NCBI GenBank assembly: GCA_000999595.1 | Contig: LCJH01000001.1 | Location: 1 to 55,815 of the forward strand | Direction of reading: 5' to 3' | Length of the DNA: 55,815 nt | Origin: Microgenomates group bacterium GW2011_GWA2_44_7 | GTDB lineage: Bacteria > Patescibacteriota > Microgenomatia > GWA2-44-7 | Shown here: in pieces, positions 7,317 to 40,672 of the stretch | How the letters are laid out: each line of letters opens with the position of its first letter | Numbering within the stretch: the first letter of the stretch is position 1 | Notes under the pieces: generated by a model | Databases searched by the model: none | The model's input: the letters and a program-made list of their open reading frames with translations, nothing else | Told to the model about the DNA's origin: nothing | Position numbers and translations under genes: made by a program

Positions 7317-8285
7317 TCATAATTGTTGCTTACCAGTAATAAACCCTTTCAAAGAATAGCCAAAACTGACGAAAAGAAGACTAAAGTTAACAAACGGCAC
7401 CAGTAATATGCGGGGGTTTTTCCACTGAGATAGATAGACGTGTCGTGTGTAAAAAAACGCATAGAAAATAATGATAATGACGCCTAGATACTGAACAAAG
7501 GGAACAGTCAGGCTCAGGAGGAGGATTTCTCTGTGAAAAGTGATGATAGTCCTACTTATTCCCGGTCCTGGTAGCCCATATCTTTGTGTGACAGCACCAT
7601 AGGCCTCTGCGTATTGAGCATGCTTACGGAAAATTGCTCCTACTCCAAAACTTGGCTCGAAACCATGAAGATGTTCAGTCTCTGCCCGAGACAGGACTAT
7701 CCTTCCAATCTTCTTAAGTTTTCTCATAGCATCTTCGTCCTCTCCTGCGCTATGGAAAGTTTGACCATCAAATAATCCAACTTTCATCAACGCCTCTTTT
7801 CTAAAACCGTCAAATTTCCCATTAGCTCCGGACAACACAACTCCAGCCCCTCGGTCAAAAAAGACCTTTTGCCAAAAGCCATATGTTTCCCATATTTTAA
7901 ATGGAATTTCTGCCGAATGACACGAAACAACGACCGTCTTATCTAAGATGAGAGGTGAAACCAGTTTCTTGAGTTCTGTAAAACTTTTAAGTCTCATATC
8001 CTGATGCATAGTAACTACAAATTCTCCTAACGCTCGTTTTATCCCGGCGTTATAAGCATTCGCCAGACCGAGAGGGTGTTTAAAGTTTAAGAGATCTGCT
8101 TTAAGCCTATATCTTCCTAAAACCCTATGGACAATTCGCAGTGACCGATCAGTAGACCCATTGTTGACAACAATTAATTTATAATTCACACCTTTTTGCC
8201 CTATGAGGCTAAGAAGAGCGGTCTTAATAGTGGCAGCACCATTAAAGAGTGGTATCACTACACTGACAAGTGGTTTTGCTTTCAT
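7317..8285 (-). CDS. GT2 glycosyltransferase with C-terminal membrane helices
   Basis: 322 aa with VSVVIPLFNGAATIKTALLSLIGQ, LIVVNNGSTDRS and an acidic motif at SAGEDEDAMRKL. Two or three C-terminal hydrophobic helices. Confidence 0.75.
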   Translation of the reverse strand: MKAKPLVSVVIPLFNGAATIKTALLSLIGQKGVNYKLIVVNNGSTDRSLRIVHRVLGRYRLKADLLNFKHPLGLANAYNAGIKRALGEFVVTMHQDMRLKSFTELKKLVSPLILDKTVVVSCHSAEIPFKIWETYGFWQKVFFDRGAGVVLSGANGKFDGFRKEALMKVGLFDGQTFHSAGEDEDAMRKLKKIGRIVLSRAETEHLHGFEPSFGVGAIFRKHAQYAEAYGAVTQRYGLPGPGISRTIITFHREILLLSLTVPFVQYLGVIIIIFYAFFYTRHVYLSQWKNPRILLVPFVNFSLLFVSFGYSLKGFITGKQQL

Positions 8286-8978
8286 AATTCAATACCTGAA
8301 ACTATCGGTGTAAGCCGGTAGGGGAAGTCTCCCCAAAATCCTCTGGACATATAATAAGGGAGTGAAGCTACGAAGACAAACTAACGCGGTTTACTTCTGC
8401 GAATATCACCCAGTGTTTCCGATAACAAAGAACAAATCAAAAGGCACATTGAGCAGCAGAGTGAAGAGGATTTTGGGCAAGCGAAGCTTGAAGTGTGAGA
8501 AAAACCGGTTGCACAAGCTGCCGATAGTTCATTTATACAGTAAGCTCGCGAATTTCTTTATAGCCTCGGTCCTTATAAATAAACTTATTCTTTACTGGAT
8601 CAAAAATATTTGAGGACAACACGTTAACCTTTTTTGTTTTTTTTGAAAAAAAAGAGAGCAACATTGCCCGATGCGTTTCACCTTGTTGTACAATCATTAT
8701 CTAAGGCTAATTATGCTTTCCTTTCATCCAGGCAAACCCGACATTGAAACCCATAACTCCAGAATAAATGGCATCTTAATAAAGCATAAATTTCGCTGCC
8801 ATTTATTGGCAAGCTCATATACCCTAGGATCATTGCTATTGTCAACGACAAACGGTTCATGGCTTTAAATAACGACCTTTCTCCTGACCTAATAAGACGC
8901 AGGATATTCTAATAGCCGCGTGGCCCAAGTCCGGTGACAACGTTAATCATCATTCTTGGGGTTGCTTTAAGAGTTTTA
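8286..8978. other. 0.69 kb gap with no convincing gene (possible decayed gene remnants plus a promoter region)
   Basis: No minus-strand ORF of 60 aa or more. My minus-strand reading gives only short open stretches. One is MMINVVTGLGPRGY-TAG-NILRLIRSGERSLFKAMNRLSLTIAMILGY.... In another frame there is EPFVVDNSNDPRVYELANKWQ, reminiscent of the VVDNgStD segment of GT2 enzymes. Homopolymer runs (T and A tracts) lie at about 8630-8655. Confidence 0.4.
8351..8379 (-). promoter_or_regulatory. Candidate sigma70-type promoter for 7317..8285 and downstream genes
   Basis: The minus strand has TTGTCT (8379-8374), a 17 nt spacer and TATTAT (8356-8351), about 65 nt upstream of the ATG at 8285. This is a pattern match only. 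Confidence 0.2.
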
Positions 8979-10076
8979 CTACTTCGCATCGACATAACTA
9001 TTCGCTGCCGAAAATATTTTCAATTTATAGCTCTTTTTACTTAGCAATTTAACTATTTCCTCATCATAGACCACTCGTGATGCTTGAATTCTTCTCCTTT
9101 CCCTTAGAGTATCAGGAAAAGTATGAAGGTTCCAACTAACCGCACTTAAAACTGAATACGACAGATCGGGTCGTCTCTTTATTAAGAAATACAACATTTC
9201 CCCCAGCTCTAATACTAGATATCGTGGTAGCACCCAAAAAAGTGTTTCTAGGGCATAATTTTTTATTAACATTCTAAGTGAATTTCGTTCGCTTAAGTAC
9301 CTTGTTCTCACTTTTCCCAGCTTCCCAAGAGATGGTGAGATATGGTGATAAAGAAAAGATCGAGGATTAGCAATTATCTTATAACCGAGAAGGCGAACTC
9401 TCCAGGATAAATCAATATCATCCGACAGCCCCCAAAACTTACCGTCAAAGCCACCTGCCTCATTAAATAGTTCTCGAGAAATAATAAAAGATCCCCCATA
9501 GGAAAAGAAAACCTCTTGAATTTCTTTCGGGTATTTATCAAAGGGCTTCCATGGATCATGTTGCATACCAAACCCATACATATCCAACTCTCCACCGGCA
9601 TTATCAATGTAATAAATTCCTGTATTTGGATCTTTATCATGCCGAACCAGGACGCTAGTACAGATTCCGACTGAGCTGTCGCTTGTAATCCCTCGCATCA
9701 ACTCCGAGACGCAGTTCTTGTCAAACTTCATGTCCTCACTCATGAGCACAACATAGTTCTCTCGCGTTCTGGCAACGGCATAATTACTAATCCCGGCTGG
9801 CCCAAGGTTTCTTGAAGACTTAATTATCTTCACTTTGGGATACTTACGTCTAACGTATTCCACACTGTTGTCTGTAGAAGCGTCGTCAGCGAGATATATT
9901 TGGTAGTTCGGATACTTCTGTCTTAAAAGTGATCCGAGTGACTCATCAACAAGACTTTTGCCGTTGTAATTCAGCACGATAACCGCAACTGAGGGGTATT
10001 TAATCCCTCTTTCAAAAGATTTCGTCATGTCATTTCTTAGCAGATTGATAAACAATTCTACTTTTCTTGTTAACAC
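8979..10076 (-). CDS. GT2 glycosyltransferase, COG1216/WbbL-like
   Basis: 365 aa with VAVIVLNYNGKSLVDESLGSLLRQKYPNYQIYLADDASTDNSVEY and LSDDIDLSWRVRLLGYKI. The true start is probably the internal Met of MTKSFERG (about 10028), which removes the 47 nt overlap with the upstream gene. Confidence 0.8.
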   Translation of the reverse strand: MLTRKVELFINLLRNDMTKSFERGIKYPSVAVIVLNYNGKSLVDESLGSLLRQKYPNYQIYLADDASTDNSVEYVRRKYPKVKIIKSSRNLGPAGISNYAVARTRENYVVLMSEDMKFDKNCVSELMRGITSDSSVGICTSVLVRHDKDPNTGIYYIDNAGGELDMYGFGMQHDPWKPFDKYPKEIQEVFFSYGGSFIISRELFNEAGGFDGKFWGLSDDIDLSWRVRLLGYKIIANPRSFLYHHISPSLGKLGKVRTRYLSERNSLRMLIKNYALETLFWVLPRYLVLELGEMLYFLIKRRPDLSYSVLSAVSWNLHTFPDTLRERRRIQASRVVYDEEIVKLLSKKSYKLKIFSAANSYVDAK

Positions 10077-11604: not shown

Positions 11605-12621
11605 CTACTGTCTCCACTTATCTCGACTACTCTCGGCCGGACTGATCTTTCCTTTCATCCAACCATACAGATATATAAACCAGGTCGAATAAATAATAAC
11701 CGGGTGCAAAACCCAAACCCAGTCTCGTGTTTTTACAAGTCCTTTTATCGTTTGGTAAAGGATAGGGACAACCAATAGACAAAGCACCTGAAAATAGATT
11801 ACTTTCACAAAAAAACTCTTTTCCCAATCAATCGCTCGTCCTCCTTTACCTTTATGAAATGACATATCGTTTATTCGTCTCAGCTGTTTCCTGAAAAATT
11901 TAAAGATGTCATCCTCAACATAGGTATGAACGATTCCCGTCTTTACTTTAGCGAAATAGACAACCTTTCTCTTTCTTAAAATTTCCACGATTACATCAAT
12001 ATCAAATAAATAATCGCCGACGCCCTTCTCAATCAACTCTCTCCTTTGCATTACTGTCCCATTGGCTCCGATTGTCGGCAGCGGCTCGTGGTCCAACTTC
12101 ACCTTGAAATAGCTACCTCTATCCTCAGCTTCCAACTTCAATCCCGTCCACTTCCCGCTAAGGACACTCATACGGTCATAATTACCGATAAAATAGCATA
12201 GCGGATCATTCATCCCTAATTGGGCGAAATACCGTGTAAGAAATGGATCATTTGGTCTTGAAGTATATTCAATTGGTTCCGATCCGATAATCTGTTTATC
12301 TCCAAACGGCTCAACCATCTTCACAAACCAATTCTTATCAGGCAAGATATTATCCGAATCAATAAAAGCCACCAATTCCCCTTTTGCCTCTTTTACACCG
12401 ACCGCTTTTCCTGACTCACTCGTTTTCAAGGGATTTTTTAAAACCCGGCAACCATATCGCCGAGCAATTTCAACTGTTTTGTCTGTTGATCCCCCATCAG
12501 CAACTATAACCTCTATCTTTTTCTTAGGATAATCTTGGGTGGAAATTGATTTAAGACAAGCCTCAATAACTGTTCCGGAGTTAAGAGCGGCAAAAACAAC
12601 CGAGATCGAAGGGTATCTCAC
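11605..12621 (-). CDS. GT2 glycosyltransferase with C-terminal membrane helices
   Basis: 338 aa with a GTG start. Has ISVVFAALNSGTVIEACLKSISTQDYPKKKIEVIVADGGSTDKTVEIA and FIDSDN. C-terminal helices include VIYFQVLCLLVVPILY and VLHPVIIYSTWFIYLYGW. Confidence 0.8.
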   Translation of the reverse strand: MRYPSISVVFAALNSGTVIEACLKSISTQDYPKKKIEVIVADGGSTDKTVEIARRYGCRVLKNPLKTSESGKAVGVKEAKGELVAFIDSDNILPDKNWFVKMVEPFGDKQIIGSEPIEYTSRPNDPFLTRYFAQLGMNDPLCYFIGNYDRMSVLSGKWTGLKLEAEDRGSYFKVKLDHEPLPTIGANGTVMQRRELIEKGVGDYLFDIDVIVEILRKRKVVYFAKVKTGIVHTYVEDDIFKFFRKQLRRINDMSFHKGKGGRAIDWEKSFFVKVIYFQVLCLLVVPILYQTIKGLVKTRDWVWVLHPVIIYSTWFIYLYGWMKGKISPAESSRDKWRQ

Positions 12622-12661
12622 AAAGCTATTTTAACTCAAAAACGCTTACAACTTCACAAAC

Positions 12662-12670
12662 TGATATAAT
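12662..12670 (+). promoter_or_regulatory. Candidate extended -10 promoter element (TGaTATAAT) for the plus-strand FNR/radical-SAM pair
   Basis: TGATATAAT lies at 12662-12670, and the TATAAT ends only 6 nt before the GTG start at 12677. If this element is used, the mRNA would be leaderless or nearly so. There is no Shine-Dalgarno in the 6 nt. This is a pattern match only. Confidence 0.25.
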
Positions 12671-12676
12671 CGCTTC

Positions 12677-13336
12677 GTGCCCAAAACCCAACCTCAAAAA
12701 GCTAAAGTTGCTCAAATAAGATTTCTAACTGAATCTACTTACATCCTTAAACTTGAGCGCAACGGTTTTCAATTTATCCCCGGCCAGTGTATTAACGTGG
12801 GGTTGCCAGGATTAGGCGTAAATCGCGAATATTCCACGTATTCAGGCATAAAAGATCCTTATTTAGAATTTTTGATCAAAAGAATTGACGGAGGACTAGT
12901 CTCAACAAAGTTGAGCCTGCTTGACCCCGGCGACGAGGTCACTCTAGATGGAGCTTATGGTCTATTTACCATCAAGAAACCTTCCGACAAAAAATGTCGC
13001 TACCTTTTTATCGCCTCAGGAACCGGTATCGCCCCCTTTCATTCTTTTCTTCGATCCTATCCAAAACTCAACTGTAAAATCCTTCACGGTATCCGCTTTG
13101 TTCGTGAGCAGTACGAGAAGGACCACTACCCAAAGGAGGTGTACACAAGTTGCGTGTCCGGAGAAAGGGGTGGAGATTTCCGCGGACGGGTGACTGGGTA
13201 TCTTAAGAAACACTCCGTTACAAAAGATACAACTTGTTATGTCTGTGGCAATAGCTCAATGATAAATGATGTTTATGATATTCTAAGGAACCAAGGACTA
13301 TCCGCAAGCAATATCCTTACGGAAACCTTTTTTTAA
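12677..13336 (+). CDS. FNR-family flavoprotein oxidoreductase (FAD_binding_6 plus NAD_binding_1, no ferredoxin domain)
   Basis: 219 aa. Has NREYSTYS (the RxYS FAD motif), IDGGLVSTKL, LFIASGTGIAPFHSFL (the GTGIAP NAD(P)H motif) and YVCGNSSMINDV. GTG start. Confidence 0.75.
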   Translation: MPKTQPQKAKVAQIRFLTESTYILKLERNGFQFIPGQCINVGLPGLGVNREYSTYSGIKDPYLEFLIKRIDGGLVSTKLSLLDPGDEVTLDGAYGLFTIKKPSDKKCRYLFIASGTGIAPFHSFLRSYPKLNCKILHGIRFVREQYEKDHYPKEVYTSCVSGERGGDFRGRVTGYLKKHSVTKDTTCYVCGNSSMINDVYDILRNQGLSASNILTETFF

Positions 13337-13342
13337 AAGACC

Positions 13343-14938
13343 ATGAAAATTGCTATTTCTTATCCTCCCATTGTGAACAAACGCGGTCAGACGGCGATGG
13401 TCTCCCAAAATCGTAATGTTCAATATTTTAAATATCCGACCTACCTTCTACCCGTAATATATGCCCAAGCGGCTACCTGGCTTAAAAACTTGGGCTTTGA
13501 GGTCCGTTGGGACGATGGCAACAGCCAACGAAAGACATACAAACAATGGTTTGACCAGTTAGTCGCCTGGCAACCAGACATTGTTGTTTTGGAAAGTACT
13601 ACCCCGGTAATGAATTTCTACTGGCAAACAACTAATGATCTAAAAAGGGCTCTCCCTAAGACAATTTTCATTATGACCGGCTATCACTCCGTGCGTAGGC
13701 CAAATGAGACTTTAGACAAATCTGCTGTCGATATCGTTTTAAAAAGCAATCACGTCGACTTTGTTCTTGCCAAGCTAATCCCATATATCGCCAAACACAA
13801 CAACTGGCGGCGGACCTGCACGGTTGAAGGGCTCACCATTCGAGTGGATAAAAAAAGAGTTAGAGACACCGGTGCTTTTCGCCAAGTAGAACCGCTAGAT
13901 AATTCGCCTCTTGTTGGCCGGGATCTGGTCGGATGGAAAAATTACGCCTATGAAAATGGAAACTTTCTCCAAACCCCGGGCACCTACGCGACGAGTGTTA
14001 TTCGCGACTGTATGTTTGGGAAATGCACTTTCTGCCGCTATAACGGTCCTGATTTGACTTTCTCAAAAATGTCTGTCGAGAAAAGTCTGGATGAATATCA
14101 GATGCTTATCGAAAAATACGGCGTTAAGGAAATTTTCGATGATTCTGGTGTCTGGTATAGAGGTGCAGATGCCAGAAGATTTGCTCAAGGGATAATTGAT
14201 CGTGGGTTGCATAAAAAGGGCTGCTATTTTGGGTTTAACACTCGTTTTGAATATCTTGATGAAGAAACCATCAAACTGTTAGCAGAAGCAAATTTCCGGT
14301 TTGTCCTTATTGGTCTTGAGGCTGCCAGCAACGAGACCCTTCGCCGTTTAAACAAAGGCTACCAAAATGATTACATTGTCCCCTGTCTTACCTGGATGAA
14401 AAAATACGGACTCCACCCTCACATGACTGTTATGGTCGGATACTACTGGGAGACGCAAGAAATGCTTGATGAAACTGTCCGATTCGTAAAAGAACTTATG
14501 TCTTCCGGGCTAACCCGATCGATACAAGTGACCCTCTGTACCCCGCTTGATTACACGCCTTATCACATTGAGTGTATTACTAAGAAAGTCCTGCTGGCCA
14601 AAAGCTATGACGATTTTGACATGAGCAAGCTCATTGTTAAGACCCCTATCCCTCACGAGAAATACTACGAAGCGATAAGAGAGATGTATGGTTTCGGTTT
14701 CAGTCCCCAATTTATCTTTAGGCAAGTACTTTTCCTTTTAACGTTTCGCAAGCGAGACTGGCAGTTTTTATTTATCTATGGCTGGCGGGCAATAAGGAGA
14801 TTAACGAATCATTACTATGATCTGACAATTCACAGCCGAAAAGGCGCAAAACCGATGGGGATTATTCAAAGGATTGCCGTTTTCTGGGTCGAGAAGATGG
14901 CTTCCCACTTCGAGACTCGACCACAGATCTCCTCTTAG
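13343..14938 (+). CDS. B12-binding-domain radical SAM enzyme (class B-like)
   Basis: 531 aa. The N-terminus has a B12-binding-like Rossmann pattern (KIAISYPP..., WLKNLGFEVRWDD, PDIVVLESTTP, IFIMTGYH, VDIVLKSNH). The cluster motif is RDCMFGKCTFCRY, and core motifs include EIFDDSG and VLIGLEAASNETLRRLNKG. The start is 6 nt after the FNR gene's stop. Confidence 0.75.
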   Translation: MKIAISYPPIVNKRGQTAMVSQNRNVQYFKYPTYLLPVIYAQAATWLKNLGFEVRWDDGNSQRKTYKQWFDQLVAWQPDIVVLESTTPVMNFYWQTTNDLKRALPKTIFIMTGYHSVRRPNETLDKSAVDIVLKSNHVDFVLAKLIPYIAKHNNWRRTCTVEGLTIRVDKKRVRDTGAFRQVEPLDNSPLVGRDLVGWKNYAYENGNFLQTPGTYATSVIRDCMFGKCTFCRYNGPDLTFSKMSVEKSLDEYQMLIEKYGVKEIFDDSGVWYRGADARRFAQGIIDRGLHKKGCYFGFNTRFEYLDEETIKLLAEANFRFVLIGLEAASNETLRRLNKGYQNDYIVPCLTWMKKYGLHPHMTVMVGYYWETQEMLDETVRFVKELMSSGLTRSIQVTLCTPLDYTPYHIECITKKVLLAKSYDDFDMSKLIVKTPIPHEKYYEAIREMYGFGFSPQFIFRQVLFLLTFRKRDWQFLFIYGWRAIRRLTNHYYDLTIHSRKGAKPMGIIQRIAVFWVEKMASHFETRPQISS

Positions 14939-14940
14939 AT

Positions 14941-15984
14941 CTAGGCTGATCTCCTTTGGTTTGAGTTTTCAATCTTTCCAGGCGAAAGGAAACCCTGAAT
15001 AAATTTCACCCCATACCAAAGAACGGTCGCTATTGTCAGCGGTATAGATAGAACCCCAAACTTGAAGTTTCCGGACATCTTGGCGATCCACAGGCCATTC
15101 AGGACTACCGCTATGCCATACCCCAGTGTTGTAATCAAACCAAATTTATAGATAAACCTCAGCTCAGCAAGGCGGTTAAGCCCTACTGCGCTACCCAATA
15201 TTTGATAGATCAAGAGATACAAAAGTCCCAGAAACACTAAACTTGGCCCAAAATATTCCAAGCGAAATGAGGTTTTTGGCAAAGCTCTGGCAAAGTACCC
15301 ACGATGGATGCCGTAATTTCCGTTTTGCTTAAAGTGCGGCCAAAAAAGCGGTCGACGGTGGTGATAAACAACCGCATCCGGATTATAGATGATTTTTTTC
15401 TTTAACTTATAAACTAATTCCAGACAGAGCTTGGTGTCTTCGCCCGGCCAGTAATTGCTGTCAAAACCACCTACTTTTAAAAAATCGGACTTTCTAACGG
15501 CTAGGTTCATCGAGGGATAATCGTCGACCTCCATCATCTTTGCCGGAATAAAGCGATAGGTACATGGACCCCCTCCGATGGGTGAAGCGGAAAACCAACC
15601 GGCGAGTTGTTCTTGCCAGGGGACAGAAGGAGGGGTTACGCCTGGGCCACCGACAGCCGCAACTTTGGGGTTTGAAAAGGGTTGGACCATCTCTTTGAGC
15701 CAATTTTTATCAGCAGGATAAGCATCATCATCGATAAATACCAATATTTCTCCCCTGGCTATCTTTGCTCCATCATCTCGTTTGATGGCCGGTCCGATGT
15801 ACCTTCCGTAATACCTTTTTTTTAATCTTGGGAATTTTATATTGACCCGGTAATCGGTTAAGAGGATTACTTCAAAATTCGTATAGGTCTGTTTGTTAAT
15901 GCCACTCAGACACTCGACTAACAATGGGTTGTTTATTTTAAAATCGATGACAATGACCGAAACATGTGGGCGATTTTTTTTCAT
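14941..15984 (-). CDS. GT2 glycosyltransferase with C-terminal membrane helices
   Basis: 347 aa with VSVIVIDFK...NFEVILLTD, ILVFIDDDAYP and YWPGEDTKLCLEL. About three C-terminal helices. The stop is 2 nt from the convergent radical SAM gene's stop. Confidence 0.75.
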   Translation of the reverse strand: MKKNRPHVSVIVIDFKINNPLLVECLSGINKQTYTNFEVILLTDYRVNIKFPRLKKRYYGRYIGPAIKRDDGAKIARGEILVFIDDDAYPADKNWLKEMVQPFSNPKVAAVGGPGVTPPSVPWQEQLAGWFSASPIGGGPCTYRFIPAKMMEVDDYPSMNLAVRKSDFLKVGGFDSNYWPGEDTKLCLELVYKLKKKIIYNPDAVVYHHRRPLFWPHFKQNGNYGIHRGYFARALPKTSFRLEYFGPSLVFLGLLYLLIYQILGSAVGLNRLAELRFIYKFGLITTLGYGIAVVLNGLWIAKMSGNFKFGVLSIPLTIATVLWYGVKFIQGFLSPGKIENSNQRRSA

Positions 15985-15989
15985 AAGAT

Positions 15990-16811
15990 TTAGCCGACAT
16001 TAACCCTAAAATTCAATTCGGGGTCGAATCGCCACTTTCGGCGATTGGCATCAGAATAGTATTTAAGTATCTTCAAACGGTAAAATACCGCAAACGTGTC
16101 GACCAGCACATCAAATACCGTCTTCGCAAAATAATGACGATTTAAAACAGAGATTCCTTTAAATTTGAACTTCAGCTCAATCGGTGCCTCATATATCCGG
16201 GTAAAGCCTAAAGAATGGGCAACGGCGAGAAGCTCAATGTCGAAAGCGTACTTCTTGACAAGTAGCCTGGGTAATACCTTTTCGAGAACTTTTCGGCGGT
16301 AGAATTTCAGTCCCACCTGGGTGTCACGTATTTTGAGCCCGAAAAGGACCAGGACGATGAACTGATAAACAAACGAGATAATGCGACGTTGCCAATTATA
16401 ATTAACTTTTGAAGCAGGATGTCTTTTTGAGCCAACGATAATGTCGGCATTGTACCATTCAAAATGCTCCAGACACATCGAGATACCATTAGGATTTAAT
16501 TCCATCCCTGCATCAATAGCGGCAATAATATCACCGCTACTTTTTGCCATCCCGAAGCGAACAGCATAACCCTTCCCCCGATTATCTTTGTAGCCTACGA
16601 TTCGAACATTTTTAATAAGTGCCTCCAGCTTTTTGGCTCTTTGATAGGTTTTGTCAACAAACCCATCCACGACAACTATCAATTCATAGCGAATCCGAAT
16701 TTGATTTAAAACTGATATGATGCTGCGGATATCCCTGACAATAGTCAGCTCTTCTCGATATGCAGGCACAATTACTGATAAAAAATGGTTGGGCTGTTTA
16801 ACGGAGCTCAT
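15990..16811 (-). CDS. GT2, GtrB/DPM1-like putative polyprenyl-phosphate glycosyltransferase
   Basis: 273 aa with LSVIVPAYREELTI, LIVVVDGFVDKT, NRGKGYAVRFGM, AIDAGMELNP, IIVGSKRH and RDTQVGLKFYRR. Confidence 0.65.
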   Translation of the reverse strand: MSSVKQPNHFLSVIVPAYREELTIVRDIRSIISVLNQIRIRYELIVVVDGFVDKTYQRAKKLEALIKNVRIVGYKDNRGKGYAVRFGMAKSSGDIIAAIDAGMELNPNGISMCLEHFEWYNADIIVGSKRHPASKVNYNWQRRIISFVYQFIVLVLFGLKIRDTQVGLKFYRRKVLEKVLPRLLVKKYAFDIELLAVAHSLGFTRIYEAPIELKFKFKGISVLNRHYFAKTVFDVLVDTFAVFYRLKILKYYSDANRRKWRFDPELNFRVNVG

Positions 16812-30391: not shown

Positions 30392-32174
30392 AACCTCTGC
30401 TTGATTTAACTTCGGAAGCCATCAAAACTGCAAGTATGGGAATTACCGATGAAAAACTTAGCAAGGTAAAAATATTAGCAAAGGTCCTAAGGGGTGTATT
30501 TTCTAACTTAATCTTTATGGTGTGTCTACCCTCGTTAGGGATTGAAAAATTGATAAGACCGAGACAAAAAGGCAGTCCGCTACAATCATTATTGAGATGT
30601 TGGACAAAAGAATCGTCTACATAGACAGACATACCGGGAAAGTCGTAAAGAGGCACTCTTAATTTAACTGCCGACTTTACCAGTATTACGCCTTCTTGAA
30701 AATCACTGCCTTTATTATAACTTTCAATTACGGCTTCTCCACTTAAGACCTCGGGATAGTCAGGAGCTTTGGTTGTCGGTGGGAACTGGGCGTAAATCGG
30801 CAGATAATCAAAAATACTTGAGGTTAATTGTTTCTCCCAGATGACACCTGATAATTTTTCTTTATCAGTAATCCTCAACCAATCCTTGGGTTTAAAGAAA
30901 TTTCCGTACAAAGACCAGGCGGCTAGCAACAAAAAAAGGGTTGCAAAAAGAGTAAATTTTCCCCTTGGGCACAAAAAGATCCCCACAGCTGCCAGAAAAG
31001 AGAGCAAGAATATTGCTGGTCCTAAGAACCGCCAAGGAAATTGCAAGTAGGCCAAGAAGTTAATCGTTTCCCAAATAAATGAAGATTTCTGATGAACCAT
31101 AAATAAAATCCCCAGAGCAAGACCCACTAGCAAGATAGCTAGCTTTGCGATAAATACGTTTCTCTTAATTGAAAATAAAGCTAGGACAAGTGCACCAAGA
31201 GCAGCGATCCAATGCACAATTCCGACAGAAAGTGAAAGGTTATCTGTTTGTCCCAGATTAGAAGATCCATATCCCCAACGGTTTGAAAAAAATAGCCCTC
31301 CTAAACTTACAAAATGTTGACGATAATCAAAATAGCCCCCAATTAACGTTTCGGTGTGAACATATCCTTTTTCGACTATGGCCGGGATAATAAAAAATGC
31401 AGCCATTCCAACAGCTAAGATAAAACTGGCAACAAACTTGGGTAGTCTTTTAAACTCTCTGAAAAAGATCGCCAAAGCAAAAATCCACACGGCCAAGACG
31501 GGTAAAAAGATTACTGACATCGGAATATGGGTTAACAAAAGAAGAGAAATAACTATGGCTAAGAAAAGGTAATTACTTCTTTGGCCATTCTTAACTGCCC
31601 GAAATGAATAGAGAAATAATAAGGGGAAGAGAGCCAACGCCCAAGATTCACTTAGAGCCCCCCGAACGTAGACTTCAACCGCCCTAAAGGGTGCGTAGAC
31701 ATAGAGTAAGCTCCCCGTATAAGCCGGCAGCAAACCAAAGAAATCCCTTAAGAGGAAAAACATCGTCACGCCTGAGGCAATAAATCCCAAGATAAACAAC
31801 AATTTAACCGTATCGATAATTTGGAAACCACTAATCTTTAAGACCGCCCCAAGATAGTAAAGGCTTGGCGGGTAATAATTGAACATCGGATAGCCATAGC
31901 CATAGCCTCCATCAGGGATCCACCGACAAGGTAGTTGCCGATCCTCCAGGCATTTGACCATTTGGTGAAGCCTAAATGCTTGTTGGTCATCTTGCATAGA
32001 AAAATAACCGGCTCTTAACAAAGAACTGAAAGACGGAACGATAAATATGATTAGCAAAAATAGTTGTAAAAGAATAGAAGACCTAAAACTTGTTAACCCT
32101 TTTTTAAAGAAAGAATGCATTTGCTTTTGTGCTTCCTGGTCTTGCCAATATAAATTACAAAACGCCCAGTCCAC
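30375..32174 (-). CDS. GT-C-like polytopic membrane protein, YfhO-like (family B, member 3)
   Basis: 599 aa with SMQDDQQAFRLHQMVKCLEDRQLPCRWIPDGGYGYGYPMFNYYPPSLYYL and YLQFPWRFL. C-terminal module LYDFPGMSVYVDDS...EGRHTIKIKL plus a terminal helix. The start may be the internal Met of MHSFFKK (about 32120). Confidence 0.65.
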   Translation of the reverse strand: MDWAFCNLYWQDQEAQKQMHSFFKKGLTSFRSSILLQLFLLIIFIVPSFSSLLRAGYFSMQDDQQAFRLHQMVKCLEDRQLPCRWIPDGGYGYGYPMFNYYPPSLYYLGAVLKISGFQIIDTVKLLFILGFIASGVTMFFLLRDFFGLLPAYTGSLLYVYAPFRAVEVYVRGALSESWALALFPLLFLYSFRAVKNGQRSNYLFLAIVISLLLLTHIPMSVIFLPVLAVWIFALAIFFREFKRLPKFVASFILAVGMAAFFIIPAIVEKGYVHTETLIGGYFDYRQHFVSLGGLFFSNRWGYGSSNLGQTDNLSLSVGIVHWIAALGALVLALFSIKRNVFIAKLAILLVGLALGILFMVHQKSSFIWETINFLAYLQFPWRFLGPAIFLLSFLAAVGIFLCPRGKFTLFATLFLLLAAWSLYGNFFKPKDWLRITDKEKLSGVIWEKQLTSSIFDYLPIYAQFPPTTKAPDYPEVLSGEAVIESYNKGSDFQEGVILVKSAVKLRVPLYDFPGMSVYVDDSFVQHLNNDCSGLPFCLGLINFSIPNEGRHTIKIKLENTPLRTFANIFTLLSFSSVIPILAVLMASEVKSSRGYAKSV

Positions 32175-33776
32175 TTTTACTTATTCTAATGGCTGGTTTG
32201 CCGTCTGGATAATTTATTTGCTTAAGGATATTTTTGTCCAGAGGCAACTCTTCCTCTTTCCCTACAAGTAATATGTTGTCGCCACGGGAGTCACTCGGGT
32301 AGTTTATTCGTCTAAACTCATATTTGCCGAGTGAATATTCTCCGAGTTGGTCTACAAATTTTAAGCCGCTTATCTCATATTGCAGCCATTTCTTTGATTG
32401 TTGCTGAAAAAATACCGGATCCTCCTTTAAAAAGAAACCGATGAAGATTTGAGGCTCACTAAATTCGTGACTAACAATAATTTTTTCATAATTTGGGCTT
32501 ACTAGACCAAGATATTGTGCTGCTTTATCCCAACCGTAGCTCATATGCGGGGCAACGACGATTGGGCTATGATAAAAATATCGATCTACAAATGAAGTTA
32601 GGCTGGCGATAACGATAACGGTAATCGCAAGAATGTTTAGATTTTTGCCTAAGACTTGAGACAGTTTATAAAATAAACTTATACCACCAAAGGCAGATAA
32701 AATTTGAATAAAAGGCATCATAATGGCAAGCCTATTGGCAGCCAATCCCGGACCTTTTGTTAAAGCGGCAGGAATAGGAGTAATAAGAATAAGTGCTACC
32801 AAGATCCAAAAGGGATAGGTTTTGATTAGCCCAAGTTTAGTGATTTTGAAAATTGCAGATACAAGAAATGCCAATTCGAAGAGATAGAGAACTCCGATCC
32901 CCGGGGCCATCCCATAAGTTGCTTCACCCGGACCTTGGGTAAACAAGAATTGGACAGAAAAATATGATAAATAATTTCCGATAAACAGTGAACCTATATA
33001 AGTCAATTTATTCCAAAACAATTTACCAAGTAGGGCCGGCTCACCTAGTAGAGCTCCGTCGTATCGAAGATCAAAGGCTGCCTGCCATCCCCCAGTCGGA
33101 CTAAAAATGGCTACATCTGCAGCACGGGTACTGGCACCGAAGAAAGTTGTCCCAAGGGCGACTAGTAGAAAGATAGAGAATATGCCTAACGAAAAGAGGT
33201 AGCGAGAAAGAATTATTTTTAAATTAAACCTCTGAAAAAACTGTCGATGAGCAAAAAATAGTAAAGTTATGGCACTAGCGGGATAAAAAAGGATGGTAGA
33301 TTTGCCTCAAATGCACCCCTTGATAGTTGGACATGCCACGGGCTGATCGCCAGCAGCAAGGCAGCTACTAAGCCAATAACATTGCCATTTAGCCAAACTT
33401 TCTCTTTTAATTTCGGCATCGACATGGCAGTATGGTCAAAAAGCGAAATGACAAGCAGGTAAGTAATCAGTACCGTGAGGGTTCCTAATATCGCGGCCGG
33501 CAAACGGGTCGCAAAAACATTAAGTCCGAATAGCGCAATTGATGGAACCGTCAGGTAGGTGTAAAGCGGGGCTTTATAATCACCAAATGTTCGGGGAGAT
33601 AACGGTAATGTCTCTCCCCACTCATCCTTCCCTGTTTGTAAAAGAGAGTATGCACTGTAGCCTTGATTGGCCTCGTCAGCATTAAACCCGGCAGGATATC
33701 GATCCAACGCACCCAGCCGGAGTATCAAAGCCAACACTATAATTGTCCCCAGAAAAATTCGACTTCTAGATATCAT
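32155..33776 (-). pseudogene. Frameshifted GT39/PMT-ArnT-like GT-C gene (family A, member 4), given as two ORFs in the track
   Basis: ORF 33267..33776 carries the family A N-terminus: FNADEANQGYSAYSLLQTGKDEWGETLPLSPRTFGDYKAPLYTY and ISPWHVQLSRGAFE. ORF 32155..33021 carries the C-terminal two thirds, ending INYPDGKPAIRISK. My reading shows the C-terminal frame stays open upstream to about 33300 (STILFYPASAITLLFFAHRQFF...LGKLFWNKLTY). Adding one base in the A run at about 33285-33290 (plus strand) fuses the two parts into a protein of about 540 aa. Confidence 0.65.
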
Positions 33777-38429: not shown

Positions 38430-39700
38430 AACTCGCGATTAATATCCAGATTAACAAGACGCCAGAAGAAAATAATACCCAGTCCTGCGAGAGTGCTTCT
38501 GACTAAACTCACTGCCTGTGAGAAAGGAATGAACTTCGCAATAAAAGCGGGTAGAGTGTAGGGAATTTCTCTAACGACCGGAAGGGCGGGTCCCAGAAGG
38601 GCGTAATGCAATGAAGGATCGAAAGATAATACAATCCCTAGATTTGCTACCATAAGCAAAATGATTAACGGTCGAAGTGCCTTTGCTTTTAACCATAAAA
38701 TGGCAAACCAAGGTGTGATCCATAAAAACCACTGTGGGTGATAATGAGTGACGGAAAATAAAAGAAGCAGGATGCCTGTCCAGATGGTGAACCATGACAC
38801 CTTTTTGGCAAATAATCCCAGACCAACAAGGGCCACAAAGCCGATGGCGAAGACAGAAAGAAACTGATCACCTGAAACATTTATTTTTGCAAATAACATT
38901 TTATCTGTCTGGGGAGCGAACAAAGCCATCACGCGATACCCCGGAGAAAAGATGGCAAAAGGAAGAACAATCGTGAGATAGACAATCAGCCCGCTTCCTA
39001 ATATTTTTAACTTTTCAATTATATTTTTCCCGAAATAAAGACTGATTGGGACAAGAAAAAGTAGGGGAAAAATTTTGTAACTGCCACCCAGGCCTAACAT
39101 TATCGAGGCCCACATGTATCTTCTCCTGGTGAGCAGTACACCGGCGGCGACAGTAAATAACGTCGGCCAAATATCCCTTTGGCCCATTGCAAAGGAGGCG
39201 TAAAGAGTTATTGGGTTAAGCATCCATAAAAGGAAAACCTTCCACTTGTCTTTGGTCTGGTTAAAAAAATAGGTCAATAGGAATGCTAGTCCAAGATCAG
39301 CAAACAGGTTCTGGCTTTTGATTAAAATTAAATAAAGCATAAATTCCGGTTTAGAAAATAAGAGACTTTCATTTTGCTCAAAAACAACCAGGTCAATGCT
39401 TTTGTCTATCAATGGCCTTAAGACCAGCCTAAAGACCGAAGGAATAAAATAAGCTAAGGGTGGAGAGTTTAGTTCCTGTGTCCCCAGGTTTTGAAAAACA
39501 CTGATTAGATCATCTTCCTCGGGCGGGCGATAAAATTGGTCGTAAAGATCTAAGAACTTGCCCTTTTCTACGATAAGGTAACTCGCAAGTGCCGTTGCCC
39601 TAACATCGGGGTGATAGGTCAAACCCATGATGGCCACCCTTGTCAGGATGGCAAAGATAACGGCGATGACCAAGGTGTATTTACTTTGAAAAATCCTCAT
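38426..39700 (-). CDS. GT-C-like membrane protein, DUF2029/GT87-Gpi18-like (family D, member 3)
   Basis: 424 aa with LTYHPDVRATALASYL...LNSPPLAYFIPSVF, then about 11 helices. YKIFPLLFL resembles FKLFPLLLI in 25196..26995. Confidence 0.55.
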   Translation of the reverse strand: MRIFQSKYTLVIAVIFAILTRVAIMGLTYHPDVRATALASYLIVEKGKFLDLYDQFYRPPEEDDLISVFQNLGTQELNSPPLAYFIPSVFRLVLRPLIDKSIDLVVFEQNESLLFSKPEFMLYLILIKSQNLFADLGLAFLLTYFFNQTKDKWKVFLLWMLNPITLYASFAMGQRDIWPTLFTVAAGVLLTRRRYMWASIMLGLGGSYKIFPLLFLVPISLYFGKNIIEKLKILGSGLIVYLTIVLPFAIFSPGYRVMALFAPQTDKMLFAKINVSGDQFLSVFAIGFVALVGLGLFAKKVSWFTIWTGILLLLFSVTHYHPQWFLWITPWFAILWLKAKALRPLIILLMVANLGIVLSFDPSLHYALLGPALPVVREIPYTLPAFIAKFIPFSQAVSLVRSTLAGLGIIFFWRLVNLDINREL

Positions 39701-40672
39701 TCACCCTCTTTCTTACATTAATTTTAAACTTCATAAATGAAAATTCCAAAGCTCGCTGGCGAAGACGGGATCCATCGACAAGGTTTAAAGCGGGGGGGCG
39801 CATAATTAGCTCTTTTGTTCTTGCTTTTAATTCCTGAGAAGAATCCCATCCATATTCCAGAAACTTTGCTCCCAGAATCTCTTTAAATCCGCCTTTTCTT
39901 ACTGGCAAAACGAGACAACCTGCCGCCATCGCTTCGACTAATGTAATGCCAAAATGTTCGACCCGTTCCGGATGGGTGTTTTCGTCTTGTCCGTAACCGC
40001 TGGCGGTCCAATAGATGGTACTTTTACCGTAAAGCTCTTTAAGTTGTGAGAAATTCGGGGCGAAAGTGAATTTGATCGGGTAACCTTCGGCCGATTTTTG
40101 TAACTGTGTTAGATCAGTTTGTTTGATACCACCGAGGCCGCCGGCCAACATTAATGTCCAACCTTTAAGGCCATCGTCGACTAATCGACAGGAGGATACA
40201 AGACATCAGTCTGAAGTCCATATTCCTTATCGATAATCTGTTTTGTAAACAGAGAATTTACCACTACCCGCCCGATACCTTTAAACTTAAGAGTGTTAAT
40301 AAGCGATTTTCCCCCAACTCCCACGAAAGGAACTTGAAAATGAAGCCAATTAACCTTAGCGGTCAAAAATGGGACACTGCCGTCACTGACAAAAAATATC
40401 AAGTCATATTTACTCATACTATAAATTTTGCGCACCAGGGCTTTACCTTTAAAAAAGTCGTTTTTGATTTTTATTCCGCTTAGGTCAATTTGAAATCTTT
40501 CTTGGCTTTTGACCAGCACATTTTTATCCGACCAGAGGACATCGACTCCGAAGCCCATTGCCTTGAGGGCAACGGCGACGGATAGCGTGTATCTCTCGCC
40601 ACCGCCTAATGTGTCTAAATAAGGATCATAGATCGCTGCCTGCTTCATTTGTATTATTGTTGAAGTTCCCAA
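39681..40672 (-). pseudogene. Split ALG11-like GT4 (GT-B) glycosyltransferase; two ORFs, and the linker/beta1 segment of the C-domain is apparently missing
   Basis: ORF 40181..40672 is the N-domain: MKQAAIYDPYLDTLGGGERYTLS...VLYPPVD, then a stop. ORF 39681..40151 is the C-domain: LMLAGGLGG...VEHFGITLVEAMAAGCLVLPVRKGGFKEIL. The frames differ and only about 29 nt separate them. The usual segment of about 35-45 aa after PPVD (ILSVGrF..K type) is absent. Confidence 0.6.

Follow-up and report, generated by a model that had tools for sequence, protein, structure and literature searches.

In vitro work on radical S-adenosylmethionine (SAM) enzymes relies on dithionite or on the Fpr/flavodoxin pair of Escherichia coli, in which an NAD(P)H-dependent flavoprotein of the FNR family is the electron entry for activation. 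We know of no physiological electron donor for most radical SAM enzymes. In this study, we analyzed two adjacent genes in a 55,815-nucleotide (nt) stretch of DNA, referred to here as the window, from the Microgenomates group bacterium GW2011_GWA2_44_7 (contig LCJH01000001.1). The first gene encodes a stand-alone FNR-family reductase of 219 amino acids (aa), designated as the mini-FNR, and the second encodes a radical SAM protein of 531 aa. The mini-FNR is most likely the radical SAM protein's own electron supplier. Each protein belongs to a known superfamily, and FNR-type reductive activation of radical SAM enzymes is a known principle (Fpr/flavodoxin; TYW1, PMC8941971). The flavodoxin domain of eukaryotic TYW1 illustrates that radical SAM enzymes can carry their own flavin module (PMC8941971). 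The mini-FNR differs from the Fpr/flavodoxin system in that it is only 219 aa long, stands alone, is genetically dedicated and falls into partner-specific clades, and no flavodoxin gene is present in the cassette. In the searched literature, we found no description of a stand-alone 219-aa FNR locked to a specific radical SAM family; of sister FNR clades locked to MiaB/MtaB, RlmN, or a PduO-type adenosyltransferase; or of an uncharacterized, ultra-conserved radical SAM family tied to a pair of family-2 glycosyltransferases (GT2) across phyla.

The FNR module has its best NCBIfam and PDB matches in BenC, MmoC, AntC, and the CDP-6-deoxy-delta-3,4-glucoseen reductase E3, an FNR-family reductase used in sugar modification. 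These proteins carry an N-terminal plant-type [2Fe-2S] domain, whereas the alignment of the window protein is confined to their C-terminal FNR part (positions 103-330 of 333 in the BenC profile). For the radical SAM protein, the best-scoring named families are HpnJ and BchE, which share its N-terminal Rossmann-like domain and radical SAM core and align over nearly the full length (aa 18-463 for HpnJ and aa 37-484 for BchE). HpnJ also acts after a GT2, remodeling a sugar that is bound to a lipid (PMC9204698). However, hopanoid or chlorophyll genes are not near the radical SAM gene of the window, and the protein belongs to a family island of its own. AprD4, the radical SAM 1,2-diol dehydratase of apramycin biosynthesis (PDB 6fd2), likewise combines a Rossmann-like N-domain with a radical SAM core and acts on a sugar with a partner reductase, but the aligned identity is about 14-15%. 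This partner, AprD3, is a short-chain dehydrogenase/reductase (SDR) that reduces a ketone. The cobalamin-dependent enzymes OxsB, TsrM, TokK, CysS, and MgmA resemble the predicted model of the radical SAM protein in overall fold, and OxsB also has its CX4CX2C spacing of cluster cysteines (PMC9204698). Their sequence similarity is nevertheless marginal: 9ccb, which is MgmA according to Foldseek, gives E 0.004, and none of them reaches E 0.01 with the family profile. A dedicated FNR gene is not reported for any of these five enzymes in the searched literature.

Pairing of the mini-FNR and radical SAM genes

The two genes lie on the forward strand as open reading frames (ORFs) at 12677..13336 (219 aa, GTG start) and 13343..14938 (531 aa, ATG start). 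The TAA stop of the mini-FNR gene occupies 13334-13336 and is separated from the ATG at 13343 by the spacer AAGACC (13337..13342, +), so that the 6-nt distance given in an earlier note on this DNA was confirmed on the sequence. The same note had described two plus-strand genes inside a minus-strand cluster, and the ORF survey of the window agreed with this. All other plus-strand ORFs of at least 100 aa in the window's ORF list lie inside or overlap a longer minus-strand ORF; besides the pair, no plausible plus-strand coding unit is therefore left in the window. The feature had been said to begin at 12622. This position marks the end of the divergent upstream gene, but the FNR gene proper starts at 12677, after an intergenic region of 55 nt in total. 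Identical genes are present on three public groundwater-metagenome contigs, where an independent gene caller gave the same two products.

The surroundings of the radical SAM gene were compared in 41 genome loci. An FNR homologue was found immediately upstream on the same strand in 39 of them, and in the other two the contig ended less than 60 nt upstream of the radical SAM gene. The adjacency thus held in 39 of 39 evaluable loci, which span the Candidate Phyla Radiation (CPR), Nitrospinaceae, SAR11, and others. Another 17 metagenome loci, found via the FNR, contained an orthologous radical SAM gene. It directly followed the FNR gene in 16 of these loci, and in L054 the distance was about 2 kb. 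Since the pair recurs in dozens of unrelated contigs, chance is excluded as the cause of the pairing. The earlier proposal that the FNR is a dedicated partner of the radical SAM protein is thus supported by the co-occurrence check, again in the metagenome loci, and by sister FNR clades beside other radical SAM enzymes.

The stop-to-start gap was determined in 50 orthologous pairs. It was 30 nt or less in 28 pairs, five of which overlapped by 1 nt; longer gaps extended up to 299 nt, and to 1959 nt in one locus with inserted genes. Translational coupling of the two genes is plausible from this spacing. In the window, the two genes share a frame (TAA AAG ACC ATG), which hinted at a read-through fusion. 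This was rejected because only 16 of the 50 orthologous pairs were in one frame, as expected by chance. P0144 and P0251, two fragmentary ORFs from metagenomes, join the end of an FNR (...SFF or ...KYF) to the radical SAM N-terminus (MKIAISYPP or MKVSISYPP) through a linker of 1-4 residues. These may be natural fusions or sequencing errors, and as possible in-frame fusions the two were counted as weak support.

Relatives of the mini-FNR and their partners

A metagenome scan with the FNR alignment gave 80 loci. The FNRs closest to the query preceded the same radical SAM gene, and relatives of the mini-FNR were located beside other enzymes. Distant FNRs (31-49% identical) were directly upstream of MiaB and then MtaB in ten loci and of RlmN in five or six (the FNR-MiaB-MtaB and FNR-RlmN loci are L052, L053, L059, L061, L069, L080, L084-L086, L088; L125, L126; L104, L108, L113, L114, L118, L121). 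In three further loci, the neighbor directly downstream was an Rv1681-like (SPASM-like) radical SAM gene. In eight loci (L103, L106, L109, L111, L112, L115, L117, and L119), an FNR relative with 33-36% identity directly follows the gene for a PduO-type cob(I)yrinic acid a,c-diamide adenosyltransferase, which suggests that this clade may be a dedicated corrinoid reductase. MiaB, MtaB, RlmN, and the PduO N-terminal domain all scored above the curated NCBIfam cutoffs. The FNR-MiaB-MtaB order was confirmed by independent gene calls on contigs of 3.2 Mb and 6.5 Mb, the neighboring genes of which are Bacteroidota-like (GH97, DUF4738).

In a neighbor-joining tree, the FNRs grouped by partner, with the exception of the SAR11-type FNRs, which were placed on a long branch apart from the main clade linked to the glycan radical SAM protein. 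The radical SAM and corrinoid partners all require low-potential single electrons, and this reciprocal test is the strongest support for the idea of a dedicated reductant. An FNR that is genetically locked to a given radical SAM enzyme offers a directly testable cognate reducing system, and cognate FNRs could render recalcitrant radical SAM enzymes active in vitro or in heterologous hosts.

The mini-FNR

The mini-FNR consists of a flavin adenine dinucleotide (FAD)-binding domain and an NAD(P)H-binding domain, and it is the proposed NAD(P)H-dependent electron donor for the downstream radical SAM protein. Pfam FAD_binding_6 scored 32.8 bits (cutoff 21.1) and NAD_binding_1 scored 32.6 bits (cutoff 22), and no ferredoxin, Fe-S, or flavodoxin domain was detected in the Pfam scan. 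The motifs R50-E-Y-S53, G115-T-G-I-A-P120, C190-G191, and the C-terminal ...TETFF with F218-F219 were invariant or nearly so in 19-33 homologues, which keep the set NREYS, GTGIAPF, CGN..M, and terminal TE.FF. C190 of the CGN motif is the only invariant Cys, and there is no Fe-S motif. With both Pfam domains above threshold and the flavin, nucleotide, CG, and C-terminal aromatic motifs in place, the protein belongs to the FNR superfamily. Its earlier description as a minimal 219-aa reductase with RxYS and GTGIAP motifs and without a ferredoxin domain was upheld by Pfam and by the motif alignment.

The best PDB sequence match was the FNR module of benzoate dioxygenase reductase (1krh, E 9.5e-14), and the matches also included flavodoxin reductase (1fdr, E 1.1e-11) and ferredoxin reductases. 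The protein remained below the equivalog cutoffs of the Fpr-type family NF008178 (49.9 vs. 390 bits) and of BenC NF040810 (101.8 vs. 430 bits). Across the genome loci linked to the radical SAM gene, the mini-FNR was 35-66% identical, while the radical SAM protein was 63-78% identical in contigs taken at one genome per species and 63-85% identical overall across phyla. Thus, the mini-FNR evolves faster than its partner.

The radical SAM protein

The radical SAM protein begins with a Rossmann-like (B12-binding-like) domain, which is followed by a partial TIM-barrel core and, at the C-terminus, by a helical region. Its identity as a radical SAM protein was established by the hidden Markov model check, in which Pfam Radical_SAM PF04055 scored 62.3 bits at aa 219-382, well above the gathering score of 29.5. 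DUF4070, for which a check had been proposed, gave no Pfam match at E < 0.01. An AlphaFold2 model (predicted local distance difference test 81, predicted template modeling score 0.84) showed the Rossmann-like N-domain, the radical SAM barrel, and the C-terminal helices. In a Foldseek search with this model, the best PDB match was AprD4, followed by MgmA, OxsB, TsrM, CysS, and TokK, and many solved radical SAM structures matched at E < 1e-10. The N-terminal B12-binding-like domain of the earlier note stands in so far as the fold matches B12-type radical SAM architectures. However, Pfam B12-binding PF02310 scored 24.2 bits, under its gathering cutoff of 32.1; a precomputed PF02310 match is present in about half of the close homologues.

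The motif C223-MFGK-C228-TF-C231 (CX4CX2C; 14009..14035, +) presumably supplies the ligands of the [4Fe-4S] cluster that binds SAM. A database search gave 1344 homologues, the best 120 of which are 70-85% identical, and the string CMFGKCTFC was identical in all of these 120. Relatives at 33-42% identity have CW[WY]G[KR]CTFC (CX4CX2C) or CWWRKDGGCTFC (CX7CX2C), and relatives at 30% identity or less have the canonical CPFxCxFC. All three Cys of the motif align across the radical SAM families, including the canonical relatives. As the spacing follows relatedness, the extra residue is a conserved clade trait. The spacing reported earlier is therefore real and conserved, but it is ordinary by itself and no notable departure: OxsB has it, a CX4CX2C megacluster is listed at RadicalSAM.org (PMC9477430), and the queuine lyase 6p78 aligns with the motif as C-IWGK-C-SF-C in the PDB sequence search.

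Sequence comparison with solved or named proteins gave marginal results. In a single-sequence PDB search, 6p78 (E 0.006) and OxsB (E 0.71) were matched besides 9ccb, and a search with the family profile gave only AprD4 (E 0.0021) and 6p78 (E 0.0023). Residue-level transfer of cobalamin-binding features onto the protein is impossible from such marginal PDB matches. The scores for the NCBIfam equivalogs HpnJ TIGR03471 (97.7 vs. 577.6 bits) and BchE TIGR02026 (90.9 vs. 481.35 bits) were also below the cutoffs.

The family is found in Gottesmanbacteria and Shapirobacteria (CPR), in several independent metagenome-assembled genomes (MAGs) of Nitrospinaceae, and in single-cell genomes of Pelagibacteraceae (SAR11). 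It is also carried by Glassbacteria, by Planctomycetes-labeled MAGs, and by one archaeon-labeled MAG. The scan of viral contigs found no copy, and thus gave no indication that phages carry the gene. Any two members share at least about 60% identity. When a library clustered at 50% identity was searched, a single full-length entry (61% identical) represented the whole family, and none of the other full-length relatives exceeded 40% identity. The family is therefore a sharply bounded, slowly evolving island.

A family-specific motif, L-C399-TPLD403-YTPY-H408 (14534..14566, +), is located just after the barrel strand 393-398. In the alignment, it replaces V(V/I)PYPGTPL[FY] of paralogues that have no FNR, and C294 and H358 differ between the two groups too. 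C399, D403, and H408 are predicted to be on the active-site side, and they appear to differ in step with the presence of the FNR. An auxiliary Fe-S site formed by the extra conserved Cys residues was considered and is unlikely, since the predicted secondary structure places C294 and C399 at opposite barrel-strand ends. Amphipathicity is highest in the helix at aa 470-497 (14750..14833, +), which is conserved and rich in aromatic and basic residues; its hydrophobic moment of 0.62 is the maximum in the protein. No transmembrane segment was found in the protein (maximum KD19 = 1.15). This helix is possibly a membrane-interface anchor, which would be compatible with action at the membrane surface.

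Among the relatives at 33-41% identity, P0123, P0126, P0128, P0138, P0141, and P0405 contain large inteins placed exactly at the Fe-S cluster Cys residues. The inteins are inserted after CTF|C or after the first Cys and have the ends ...HN|C or ...KN|C; P0405 has precomputed Pfam Hint_2 and Intein_splicing domains.

Glycan context of the pair

The window is almost wholly a one-strand glycan supercluster with about 20 GT2 genes, GT4, methyltransferases, and a flippase. Two GT2 genes on the minus strand follow the pair. GT2-B (14941..15984, -) encodes a family-2 glycosyltransferase of 347 aa with 3-4 C-terminal transmembrane segments and is convergent with the radical SAM gene; its similarity to MftF and AglG is weak. 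GT2-A (15990..16811, -) encodes a protein of 273 aa that resembles the polyprenyl-phosphate sugar synthases ArnC, PpgS, AglJ, and PgfS. In about 33 of 56 loci, the pair has a GT2-B orthologue (35-57% identity) as a neighbor, and the gene order takes three forms: GT2-B is downstream and convergent, it immediately precedes the FNR gene, or it immediately follows the radical SAM gene. GT2-A is often beside GT2-B, and the two are fused in some genomes (neighbor cluster 15). The role in glycan biosynthesis that the earlier note had assumed is thus supported.

A paralogous radical SAM family (35-38% identical, CWWG[KR]CTFC) was found in Roizmanbacteria CP066689.1, in a Chloroflexi-type contig, and in WWE3. 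GT2-A/GT2-B orthologues (38-50% identical) are directly upstream of the radical SAM gene in the Roizmanbacteria and Chloroflexi loci, and about 1 and 4 kb upstream in WWE3. No FNR was present within 5 kb of the paralogous gene in these three loci. Because the paralogue keeps the GT2 pair without an FNR, the conserved unit is GT2-A, GT2-B, and the radical SAM gene, and the FNR is a family-specific addition. The radical SAM family and the GT2 pair point to a widespread sugar modification in the envelopes of abundant uncultured bacteria. In one locus, L028, the FNR-linked radical SAM gene is directly followed by a paralogue-type copy of the kind that has no FNR (7765-9393; 36% identical, CWWGKCDFC), and one FNR may serve two radical SAM enzymes there.

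Proposed mechanism and alternative explanations

We consider it probable that the pair is a conserved redox cassette within a glycan module of GT2-A, GT2-B, and the radical SAM gene, usually with a Wzx-like flippase nearby, in which the FNR feeds a radical SAM protein acting on a membrane-linked sugar. Gene structure, domains, motifs, synteny, the FNR clades, and the GT2 link all support this reading. The 219-aa flavoprotein would take a hydride from NAD(P)H onto FAD and hand single electrons to the radical SAM protein, either directly or via a small cellular ferredoxin or flavodoxin, so as to reduce the CX4CX2C-bound [4Fe-4S]2+ cluster. The reduced cluster would then cleave SAM to the 5'-deoxyadenosyl radical. 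The substrate would be a membrane-associated intermediate that the neighboring GT2 enzymes synthesize, probably on polyprenyl phosphate, and the radical would remove a hydrogen atom from its sugar. The sugar modified in this way would be flipped, and the cluster's numerous GT-C transferases would use it. In which direction and how directly the electrons pass, that the substrate is a membrane-linked sugar, and what type of reaction takes place are inferences. Candidate reactions are rearrangement or ring contraction, epimerization, dehydration, and methylation.

Several observations weigh against the cassette as described. FAD couples are less reducing than typical radical SAM clusters. As the FNR has no Fe-S or flavin mononucleotide relay domain, direct transfer may be inefficient and a separate ferredoxin may be needed. 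About one quarter of the FNR-relative loci with sufficient flanks show no radical SAM or adenosyltransferase neighbor, so the rule is not absolute. The paralogous radical SAM family lacks an adjacent FNR, which is therefore no general requirement of the GT2 module, and one paralogue locus has a small ferredoxin in place of the FNR. Some long loci, such as L016, L033-L035, and L040, have no GT2-B close to the pair. In addition, the fusion ORFs P0144 and P0251 are fragments with frameshifted ends, and the taxon labels of MAGs are possibly unreliable.

A bolder proposal, which we put forward only tentatively, is that stand-alone mini-FNRs are an unrecognized family whose members, driven by NAD(P)H and each specific for its partner, directly activate radical SAM enzymes and a corrinoid adenosyltransferase without a flavodoxin or ferredoxin relay. 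The radical SAM protein of the window would then catalyze a new electron-consuming, possibly cobalamin-independent transformation of a polyprenyl-phosphate-linked sugar by means of C399, D403, and H408.

The earlier note had placed the protein among the class B cobalamin-dependent enzymes and had taken methylation as their typical reaction. This placement is weakened by the PF02310 score below threshold and by the best fold match, AprD4, which binds no cobalamin (PMC12931638). Rossmann-like domains without cobalamin exist in AprD4 and in ArsL homologues (PMC12931638). Methylation is also a weak guide, as HpnJ and BchE, the named families closest to the protein, are not methylases (PMC9204698). 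Cobalamin dependence and methylation therefore cannot be assumed.

The FNR might nonetheless serve a corrinoid: if the radical SAM protein were a true class B enzyme, the flavoprotein would reduce cob(II)alamin to cob(I)alamin and so regenerate methylcobalamin. Analogues of such a corrinoid-reducing FNR are the Fpr/flavodoxin pair with MetH or CobA and methionine synthase reductase. We regard this explanation as unlikely, and it would be compatible with the redox cassette described above. The class B methylases require one extra electron per turnover to regenerate methylcobalamin (PMC9204698), and the eight PduO-linked loci, the weak PF02310 match, and the fold matches to OxsB, TsrM, TokK, CysS, and MgmA are what it would lead one to expect. 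However, the other sister FNR clades pair with MiaB, MtaB, and RlmN, which are corrinoid-free. The radical SAM family is also present in SAR11 single-cell genomes and in CPR bacteria, and to our knowledge these groups are generally without cobalamin synthesis. The PF02310 score below the gathering cutoff and the cobalamin-free state of AprD4 (PMC12931638) argue in the same direction.

The FNR might also be a chemical partner in a two-step sugar deoxygenation, in which the radical SAM protein would act as a diol dehydratase like AprD4 or catalyze a similar radical rearrangement, and the FNR would reduce the product or an intermediate. The models for such a reaction are AprD3 with AprD4, and the FNR-family reductase E3 with E1 in 3,6-dideoxyhexose synthesis. 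AprD4 was the best match both by structure (E 7.5e-18, target-normalized template modeling score 0.70-0.74) and in the PDB profile search, and the FNR has its best NCBIfam and PDB matches in the modules of multi-component reductases (BenC, MmoC). The residues C399, D403, and H408, missing from the paralogues without an FNR, would also suit a chemistry in which the FNR takes part. We nevertheless judge such a deoxygenation to be quite improbable, because AprD3 is an SDR and not an FNR, E3 has a [2Fe-2S] domain that the mini-FNR lacks, the sequence similarity to AprD4 is marginal (E about 2e-3), and the FNR sister clades partner with enzymes that require only cluster reduction.

It is very unlikely that the radical SAM substrate is the lipid carrier or another membrane lipid and not a sugar, with the glycan context reflecting common polyprenyl carriers. 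The nearest named families do include HpnJ, HpnR, and the ladderane lipid radical SAM enzymes; enzymes of the BchE/HpnJ cluster act on hopanoids and ladderanes, and the amphipathic C-terminal helix is conserved. However, the scores to the HpnJ, HpnR, and ladderane families are far under the cutoffs, the tightest conserved neighbors in both paralogous families are glycosyltransferases, and even in HpnJ it is the sugar portion of the substrate that is acted on (PMC9204698). Incidental adjacency of an unrelated housekeeping FNR is effectively refuted by the 39 of 39 evaluable loci across phyla, by the pair staying together while its surroundings rearrange, and by the partner-specific FNR clades in the neighbor-joining tree.

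Flanking signals and neighboring genes

An extended -10-like box, TGATATAAT (12662..12670, +), was read directly from the sequence and ends 6 nt before the GTG start of the mini-FNR gene. No Shine-Dalgarno sequence is present between this box and the GTG, and no -35 hexamer is present 16-18 nt from the box, so it was not listed by the consensus promoter scan. A two-gene transcript with a leaderless or near-leaderless start is possible from this arrangement. The consensus scan of 12300-15300 for promoters and terminators gave nothing above background. At the other end of the pair, the stops of the radical SAM gene (ending at 14938) and of the convergent GT2-B gene (14941) are 2 nt apart (14936-14943). 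As no terminator-like hairpin was seen between these stops, the convergent transcripts would overlap.

The divergent gene upstream of the pair (11605..12621, -) encodes a GT2 of 338 aa. Its orthologue (44% identity over 338 aa) is directly downstream of the radical SAM paralogue without an FNR in the Chloroflexi-type locus. The other gene types of the window include SAM-dependent methyltransferases, at least 12 GT-C-type membrane transferases (PMT_2, PMT, PTPS_related, YfhO), a Wzx-like flippase, and a GT2-GtrA protein. No ferredoxin, flavodoxin, or cobalamin family was matched among the annotated ORFs of the window, a result that covers these 55 kb and not the supply from the rest of the genome. 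A glycan cluster of 55,815 nt is a very large coding share for what is presumably a small-genome, CPR-like organism.

Two places in the cluster appear to contain incomplete genes. A GT4 gene is seemingly split into ORFs at 39681-40151 and 40181-40672 (-), which are 29 nt apart; the N-terminal Glyco_transf_4 part is 163 aa and the C-terminal Glycos_transf_1 part is 156 aa, and a pseudogene, a frameshift, or an assembly error could explain the split. At 33267-33776 (-), an ORF of 169 aa contains only the N-terminal part of a PMT_2 GT-C transferase. An ORF of 288 aa without a Pfam match (32155-33021, -) is separated from this fragment by a 245-nt gap, and the two may represent a disrupted GT-C gene.

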